Shown one piece after another: positions 21,794-23,130 of a stretch of 64,000 bases of DNA. The position numbers and the translations under genes are program-made. Numbering within the stretch: position 1 is the first letter of the stretch; each line of letters begins with the position of its first letter. The stretch lies in NCBI RefSeq assembly GCF_016026235.1, contig NZ_CP065613.1; one strand, given 5' to 3'. A model generated the notes under the pieces. It saw only the letters and a program-made list of their open reading frames with translations, was not told the origin of the DNA and did no database searches. The DNA comes from Escherichia coli (GTDB lineage: Bacteria > Pseudomonadota > Gammaproteobacteria > Enterobacterales > Enterobacteriaceae).

Positions 21794-21932
21794 GAGTGAA
21801 ATAACCTCTTGAAACTTATTGAAATGGGGGTGGAAAATTGCCCACGGATAAAGGCAATCATAGCAGAACAGGCAGTCTTGCGGAATCAGCAAACGAGCAG
21901 GACTGCACACTGTGCTACATGAAACTGGAAAT

Positions 21933-22226
21933 TTAAACGATGCCCTGACTACGCAGCGCCGCCAGTTGCTGCATTAACATCTCTTCGATCAGTTCGCTAC
22001 GGCTCATATTGCGCGATTCCGCCAGCTCGTTCAGCGCCTCGACAGCTTCCGCGTTCAGCTTCAGTTCGACACGCTTAAGGCCACGTACTTTGTCGCGTTT
22101 TAGCTGGTTGCGTTTATTAATACGCAGCTGTTCATCGCGCGAAAGCGGATTAGTTTTCGGTCGTCCCGGTCGACGCTCGTGCGCGAACAGATCTAATGTC
22201 GTACGGTCCGTTTGTTCTTTGGCCAT
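21933..22226 (-). CDS. ybfE: LexA-regulated protein YbfE, 97 aa
   Basis: [49 protein letters not shown]...; the start at 22226 is chosen from the remembered protein, the ORF table extends 23 aa upstream. Confidence 0.8.
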
Positions 22227-22344
22227 GATCTTGGTGACTTCGGGGGAAACAATCAGCCAGGCCTCTGCCCGGATGGATAGCGCGCCATAATACATCAGCG
22301 CGATGAGTCACGCCAACGCCCACGCGCGGAAAGCGACGCGGACG

Positions 22345-22360
22345 CTGGGTTTTTAATCAG
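22345..22360 (-). promoter_or_regulatory. Candidate LexA box (CTG-N10-CAG) upstream of ybfE
   Basis: Minus-strand CTGATTAAAAACCCAG about 120 nt upstream of the ybfE start, immediately after the ybfF stop. Confidence 0.5.
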
Positions 22361-22365
22361 TTGCG

Positions 22366-23130
22366 TTAATCATTGAGATAGCGACGGATAGCGCGTAATA
22401 CCGCATCCGGTTTTTCAGCATGGACCCAGTGACCCGCGCCTGCAATCACATGCGCCCGTGCCTGTGGAAATTGTGCCAGTAAATCATCACGGTACTGCTC
22501 GCTAACATACGGAGAATTGCCGCCAGGGATAAACAGGGCAGGGTGATCCCATGCCGGGATTTTCTCCCAACCCACAATATGCGGATACTGATCCCACAAT
22601 ACCGGCACGTTAAAGCGCCACTCCCCGTCAACAAAAGATTTCAACAGAAACTGAATCACCCCTTCTTCATTAAGATGCTGGCGCATTATTGCTGCTGCTT
22701 GCTGGCGAGTTTGTGCGTCCGATTCACTGACCGCGTTGATAGCTGCGAAAATCTCATCATGACGGCGTACGTGATAGTCGACCGGTGCGATATCGATCGC
22801 CACCAGTTTATCGATGCGATCGGGGGCCAGTGCAGTAAGTGCCATTACCGCTTTACCGCCCATGGAGTGACCGATAAATGTTGCTTTGTCGATCTGCAGT
22901 GCATCCAGGGTATCAACAAGATCCTGCGCCATCGCCGGGTAATTCATTACCGGCTCTCTCGGTGAAAGACCGTGGTTACGCATATCAACCTGGATGATAT
23001 TGTGATCGTTTACCAGATCGCGAGCCAGTACGCCAAGGTTGTCGAGGCTACCAAACAGACCATGGACAAGAACGATGGGAGAATTATTGTGCTGGTTTTG
23101 TGCAGTTTGCGCGCGGATATTCAATTTCAT
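22366..23130 (-). CDS. ybfF: Esterase YbfF (alpha/beta hydrolase), 254 aa
   Basis: Nucleophile elbow GHSMGG; recognised sequence MKLNIRAQTAQNQHNNSPIVLVHGLFGSLDNLG. Confidence 0.93.
   Translation of the reverse strand: MKLNIRAQTAQNQHNNSPIVLVHGLFGSLDNLGVLARDLVNDHNIIQVDMRNHGLSPREPVMNYPAMAQDLVDTLDALQIDKATFIGHSMGGKAVMALTALAPDRIDKLVAIDIAPVDYHVRRHDEIFAAINAVSESDAQTRQQAAAIMRQHLNEEGVIQFLLKSFVDGEWRFNVPVLWDQYPHIVGWEKIPAWDHPALFIPGGNSPYVSEQYRDDLLAQFPQARAHVIAGAGHWVHAEKPDAVLRAIRRYLND

Follow-up and report, generated by a model that had tools for sequence, protein, structure and literature searches.

The LexA box of Escherichia coli ybfE: a catalogued, marginal site upstream of a conserved promoter

The LexA boxes of Escherichia coli are described by the consensus TACTG(TA)5CAGTA, in which a CTG-N10-CAG core surrounds an A/T-rich spacer. 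Accepted boxes extend to weak members such as those of polB, dinB, dinG, and ftsK. In the transcription start site (TSS) dataset of Kim et al. 2012, the boxes of uvrB (-30 to -11), sulA (-12 to +8), and dinI (-1 to +19) all overlap the core promoter. The box of ybfE is a published LexA box as well, and ybfE has been part of E. coli LexA regulon listings since 2000; the finding dealt with here is thus already known. Northern blots with lexA(Def) and lexA(Ind-) strains, reportedly performed by Fernandez De Henestrosa et al. in 2000, are said to have revealed LexA-dependent expression of ybfE and to have led to its addition to the regulon. The 16-mer of the present study has been printed in identical form as the ybfE LexA site (PMC2585105), ybfE has been counted among the classical SOS genes, its box being termed "predicted (weak)" and given the Courcelle 2001 value of 11 for the heterology index (HI) (PMC11228462), and a 2019 review lists ybfE among the genes with an SOS box.

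The published expression data for ybfE conflict. One study scored the activity of 14 SOS promoters as a function of UV dose; the ybfE promoter-GFP reporter among them was an outlier that was strongly down-regulated at late times and then excluded (PMC5999292). Upon exposure to AZT (zidovudine), ybfE was 4-fold up in RNA-seq with a lexA dependence of 0.74, i.e., none, so that, unlike for established LexA boxes, the LexA dependence of ybfE was not reproduced in this recent dataset (PMC11228462). Ciprofloxacin did not induce ybfE in K-12, nor in EHEC. In Salmonella, ybfE was not induced by the mutagen MX and was induced by nalidixic acid, and no SOS box was found there.

This study examined the ybfE box in a 64,000-nucleotide stretch of E. 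coli DNA (the window). Its sequence, score, TSS-relative position, and conservation are results of the analysis itself, and the literature supplies the LexA-box designation as well as the expression data. The region corresponds to E. coli fur-fldA-ybfE-ybfF-seqA within the gene block chiP-chiQ-fur-uof-fldA-ybfE-ybfF-seqA-pgm, and a 601-nt query spanning the box is present at an identity of at least 95% in 5,424 of the 5,426 complete E. coli genomes. The ybfF product matches Pfam Abhydrolase_1 (E = 2e-27), and the ybfE product, named "LexA regulated protein" in RefSeq, is a ribbon-helix-helix protein of the CopG family (Pfam RHH_1, E = 1.7e-10, residues 52-89).

Sequence, score, and placement of the ybfE box

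The sequence-only reading of this DNA had placed a LexA box on the minus strand about 120 nt before the ybfE start, abutting the ybfF stop codon, and had taken it for the SOS box of ybfE. The letters match exactly: the plus strand at 22345-22360 is CTGGGTTTTTAATCAG, and its reverse complement CTGATTAAAAACCCAG carries the palindromic CTG-N10-CAG core of LexA operators (Table 1). The distance from the box edge at 22345 to the ybfE ATG is 119 nt, and the gap between the ybfF stop (TAA) and the 16-mer is 5 nt. The assignment to ybfE agrees with both the RefSeq name and the published 16-mer (PMC2585105). The start codon used here is that of the 97-aa form of ybfE. A program-made list of open reading frames also contained a 120-aa ybfE frame starting from an ATG at 22295 (22293-22295, minus strand), which would have set the box 48 nt from the start codon. 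This ATG overlaps the -10 hexamer and, because it lies upstream of the mapped TSS at 22278, the 97-aa annotation is correct and the 120-aa frame is not real.

Table 1. Coordinates of the features around the ybfE box in the window.
Feature	Position	Strand	Basis and remarks
LexA-box core CTGATTAAAAACCCAG, CTG-N10-CAG	22360..22345	minus	read from sequence
Full 20-mer box AACTGATTAAAAACCCAGCG	22362..22343	minus	-84 to -65 from the ybfE TSS, centre -74.5
ybfE -35 hexamer TTGGCG	22311..22316	minus	promoter scan; RpoD genomic SELEX (PMC3946193); invariant in 27 genera
ybfE -10 hexamer TATTAT	22287..22292	minus	promoter scan; PMC3946193; TATGAT in most genera
ybfE TSS (A)	22278	minus	Kim et al. 2012, supplementary table
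ybfE CDS, 97 aa, ATG at 22226	21933..22226	minus	RefSeq annotation
ybfF CDS, 254 aa, alpha/beta-hydrolase esterase	22366-23130	minus	ORF list, RefSeq annotation
ybfF TAA stop	22368..22366	minus	ORF list
TGA in frame within the box (AAC TGA), ancestral ybfF stop	22357..22359	minus	species comparison
H1, sense-strand RNA hairpin	22310..22350	minus	folding, covariation
H2, small leader hairpin CCGGGC-AGAG-GCCUGG, then CUGAUUGUUU	22257..22272	minus	flagged terminator-like

Scoring against a LexA matrix, which had been proposed as a check, places the site first in the window and at the weak end of the known boxes. With an HI matrix based on 18 E. coli LexA boxes from the literature (PMC3009722, Table 4), the 20-mer AACTGATTAAAAACCCAGCG obtained an HI of 10.8, the best among 127,962 positions when both strands of the window are counted and similar to the leave-one-out values of the accepted weak boxes of ftsK, dinB, polB, and dinG (11.4-12.8). 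With a symmetrised matrix its HI rose to 13.2, which is still first in the window, yet worse than all 18 reference boxes. All values (10.8, 13.2 symmetrised, and the published 11) thus fall within the range of LexA-binding boxes, i.e., below about 15, towards its weak end. Position 6 (A, 3.4), position 20 (G, 2.1), and position 7 (T, 1.8) carry the largest penalties. The left half of the box reads CTGAT instead of CTGTA, and unlike the 18 reference boxes, which have CTGT or CTGG and in no case CTGA, the ybfE box begins with CTGA. This left half is shared with the accepted E. coli box of symE (yjiW), CTGATGATATATACAG (PMC2585105), the spacer of which is closer to (TA)n than that of the ybfE box.

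By exact calculation, the probability of an HI of 10.82 or lower is 4e-6 per position, so that chance alone would yield about 0.5 sites of this quality in 64 kb and about 38-50 in a genome; likewise, a site with an equal or better HI appears in 25% of the first-order Markov simulations run for the window. The CTG-N10-CAG core alone is uninformative because CTG and CAG are common codons: the window contains 31 matches versus 13 +/- 3.6 in dinucleotide shuffles, an excess that is as expected from heavy CTG/CAG codon use. Nearly all of these 31 matches fall in coding DNA. With 31 matches in 64 kb, the bare CTG-N10-CAG pattern is of little use as a first filter when looking for LexA sites in coding-rich E. 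coli DNA. The motif is present and is the best local LexA-like site, and judged by sequence statistics alone it would be a plausible candidate rather than a demonstrated operator; its assignment as a LexA site rests on the published record and not on such statistics. Another LexA-like 20-mer, CATCGTTTAAATTTCCAGTT (21923-21942, minus strand), ranked fourth in the window with an HI of 12.6 (third with the symmetrised matrix). It overlaps the ybfE stop codon, lies at about -22 to -41 of the fldA TSS (K-12 710796, window 21901), has TCG in place of CTG, and reads CCAG in this strain versus CCAC in K-12; it is probably a chance match.

The ybfE promoter has two independent published sources behind it. 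The promoter scan found one sigma-70-like promoter on the minus strand of the ybfF-ybfE intergenic region, with an 18-nt spacer and the 8-nt GC-rich discriminator GGCGCGCT, and the same hexamers were proposed by Shimada et al. for a constitutive RpoD promoter in this region by genomic SELEX (PMC3946193). Kim et al. 2012 mapped the ybfE TSS to K-12 711173(-), where they counted 889 reads and obtained a 5' UTR of 52 nt; ybfF had only 35 reads in their data. The upstream sequence that they give for ybfE is identical to that of the window, which fixes +1 at 22278. A stretch of about 20 nt around the -10 hexamer is almost invariant in 27 genera. RNA-seq placed ybfE in a ybfE-fldA-uof-fur operon, the ybfE promoter of which is shut off in stationary phase (PMC4161252). 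The 18-nt spacer together with the GC-rich discriminator suggests growth-rate-sensitive or stringent control, which would fit both this shut-off and the late down-regulation of the reporter after UV.

The -35 hexamer follows 26 bp downstream of the proximal edge of the box. Unlike the boxes of uvrB, sulA, and dinI, the ybfE box (-84 to -65) overlaps neither the -35 or -10 hexamer nor the start site. The idea of a cooperating LexA site closer to the core promoter was examined and rejected, as the best HI between 22200 and 22345 was 21.5. A second promoter overlapping the box was likewise rejected: the segment 22330-22380 has no acceptable -35/-10 pair, and only one ybfE TSS has been reported.

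Constraints on the DNA that forms the box

The box shares its DNA with a strong RNA hairpin, H1, which begins 16 nt past the ybfF stop. The 5' arm of H1 holds the right half of the box (CAGCG), which pairs with CGTTG, and its 3' arm holds the ybfE -35 (CGTTGGCG). On the minus strand H1 folds with a minimum free energy of -27.9 kcal/mol (z = -3.7); the plus-strand value is only -16 kcal/mol (z = 0.09). Because of this strand difference H1 is a structure of the sense strand at the RNA level, rich in G.U pairs. Across 70 species, 76% of the cells were paired versus 26-51% in slid controls, four pairs were changed on both sides, and three polymorphisms within E. coli all preserve or improve pairing. 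Detecting H1 in the comparison took a gap-free alignment with the -35 as anchor; RNAalifold on a 220-column intergenic alignment returned only uninformative invariant pairing, and an Rfam search of 21850-22450 gave no match at E <= 1. Read on the plus strand, H1 and the GGGTTTTTAAT that follows it resembled an intrinsic terminator for antisense transcription; this reading was rejected in view of the weak plus-strand fold and a stem that needs G.U pairs.

Some mRNA 3' regions contain stable stem-loops that lack a U-tract and guard the 3' end after Rho-dependent termination or processing. H1 resembles these structures in being strong, GC-rich, sense-strand specific, and without a following U-tract, and it is unusual in containing the -35 of the downstream gene in its 3' arm and half a LexA box in its 5' arm. 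H1 may protect or define the 3' end of the ybfF mRNA. No canonical U-tract terminator was found on the sense strand between ybfF and ybfE, and the 3'-end supplements of Adams 2021 have no ybfE or ybfF entry. The smaller hairpin H2 sits in the 52-nt ybfE leader, 6 nt past the TSS, and is thermodynamically ordinary in E. coli (z = 0.27); other genera have hairpins at the same position with different stem sequences. H2 is followed by a conserved block, UUGUUUCCCCCGAAGUCA, and no clear Shine-Dalgarno sequence precedes the ybfE ATG.

The left half of the box is bound up with the end of ybfF. The TGA within the box terminates ybfF in 16 of 36 representative species, e.g., in C. sedlakii (NDSAN-TGA), and in E. 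coli the gene stops at a TAA three codons earlier (TAA CGC AAC TGA, 22357-22368, minus strand; ND-stop RN-stop versus NDSAN-stop in C. sedlakii). On this comparison, E. coli YbfF appears to have lost three C-terminal residues via a recent upstream stop.

For a wider view of conservation, 80 enterobacterial ybfE loci were fetched, the intergenic region was aligned, and the box position was compared in 75 species. Little or no variation is seen in the ybfE -35, the -10 region (CTGATGTAT[G/T]ATGGCGCGCT), or the initial codons of ybfE. Both CTG and CAG are kept in 15 of the 75 species, namely, three Escherichia, 11 Citrobacter, and Yokenella, and the HI at the box position is 10.8 in Escherichia, 13.5 in Citrobacter, 15.1 in Yokenella, and above 16 in 52 of the 75. 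In S. arizonae, CAT replaces CAG and the HI is 17.1, in agreement with the Salmonella study in which no box was found. Over all 75 species TG..TAAAA and the terminal CG are invariant, and the LexA-critical C3, C16, A17, and G18 vary. The box is therefore not generally kept upstream of ybfE orthologues in related species, although it is invariant within Escherichia: in eight Escherichia haplotypes, including E. albertii, the 20-mer does not change and both flanks do.

Operator, by-product, or look-alike

With roughly two chances in three, AACTGATTAAAAACCCAGCG is what the catalogues say it is, a genuine but marginal and weak LexA operator of ybfE with an HI of about 11. The main competitor, which is judged unlikely, is that the box is a chance look-alike without regulatory function in vivo, and that damage induction of ybfE, where it is seen, would arise via LexA-independent routes. 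Each part of the box can be traced to a constraint other than LexA because the CTG comes from the ancestral Asn-TGA stop of ybfF, the A/T-rich box spacer is the conserved TTAAAAA tract, and the CAG is the 5' arm of H1, which pairs with the TTG of the invariant -35 in a hairpin that covaries. The look-alike reading also draws on the chance expectation of about half a site per window, on the variation of the LexA-critical positions beside the invariant TG..TAAAA and terminal CG, and on the location of the box upstream of the core promoter, as well as on the lexA-independent AZT induction (PMC11228462), the lack of induction by ciprofloxacin, and the nalidixic acid induction of Salmonella ybfE without a detectable box. 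Against it stand the strict invariance of the 20-mer within Escherichia, the scoring of the ybfE reporter for UV-dependent activity beside 13 other SOS promoters (PMC5999292), and the literature in which ybfE is classed as LexA-regulated (PMC11228462, PMC2585105, and the 2019 review). The look-alike reading further has to face what the original study is said to have found. There, Northern blots in lexA mutants reportedly tied ybfE expression to LexA. A related and somewhat less doubtful proposal, held only tentatively here, is that the box is a young operator of the Escherichia/Citrobacter lineage, an accidental product of stop codon, A-tract, and H1 arm that regulates ybfE little or not at all.

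Two further readings give the same DNA another function, and both are very improbable. According to one of these, LexA acts as a roadblock that halts polymerase leaving ybfF, and SOS raises a read-through transcript from ybfF into ybfE(-fldA-uof-fur). The box, 5 nt past the ybfF stop, is well placed for this, the sense strand between the two genes lacks a canonical U-tract terminator, and ybfE is co-transcribed with fldA-uof-fur (PMC4161252); however, a weak operator makes a poor roadblock, no experimental support for LexA roadblocking at the ybfE box was found in the literature, and the ybfF promoter is so weak (35 versus 889 reads, 25-fold; Kim et al. 2012) that read-through would add little. 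The sharing of DNA between ybfF read-through and SOS control, as suggested from the sequence alone, is accordingly borne out in position only, and because of this difference in promoter strength read-through is likely a minor input to ybfE. The other reading, equally remote, takes the conserved AACTGATTAAAAAC element as the site of another factor, for example an activator at a class I-like position near -74, or YbfE itself, a ribbon-helix-helix protein of a class that is often autoregulatory. TG..TAAAA is invariant even where it is not a stop codon (Klebsiella, Siccibacter), yet this conservation may instead stem from the mRNA 3' region, AACTGATTAAAAAC showed neither a repeat nor a known motif, and no factor has been linked to the site.

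If the box is a weak operator of ybfE, as preferred here, its occupancy by a LexA dimer would be expected to be incomplete as long as the cells are undamaged. The strong, conserved sigma-70 promoter has its -35 another 26 bp downstream, so that LexA at the box would be unable to block RNA polymerase on the core promoter, and from its position centred at -74.5 it might at most hinder upstream polymerase contacts or DNA wrapping, resulting in slight repression. Such repression would be lifted early in the SOS response, when RecA-stimulated cleavage of LexA begins. Expression of ybfE would for the most part be set by the promoter itself, which is off in stationary phase, and the effect of the box on ybfE expression is probably small.

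Should the box instead be a lineage-specific by-product, the name "LexA regulated protein" would overstate the biology of ybfE, and the real conserved feature would be the overlap of hairpin and promoter. H1, which joins the 3' end of ybfF to the ybfE -35, is possibly worth a small follow-up. For the SOS regulon of E. coli, ybfE is best treated as a marginal member because its box is weak, lies off the core promoter, is not conserved beyond Escherichia and Citrobacter, and is contradicted by some transcriptomes.
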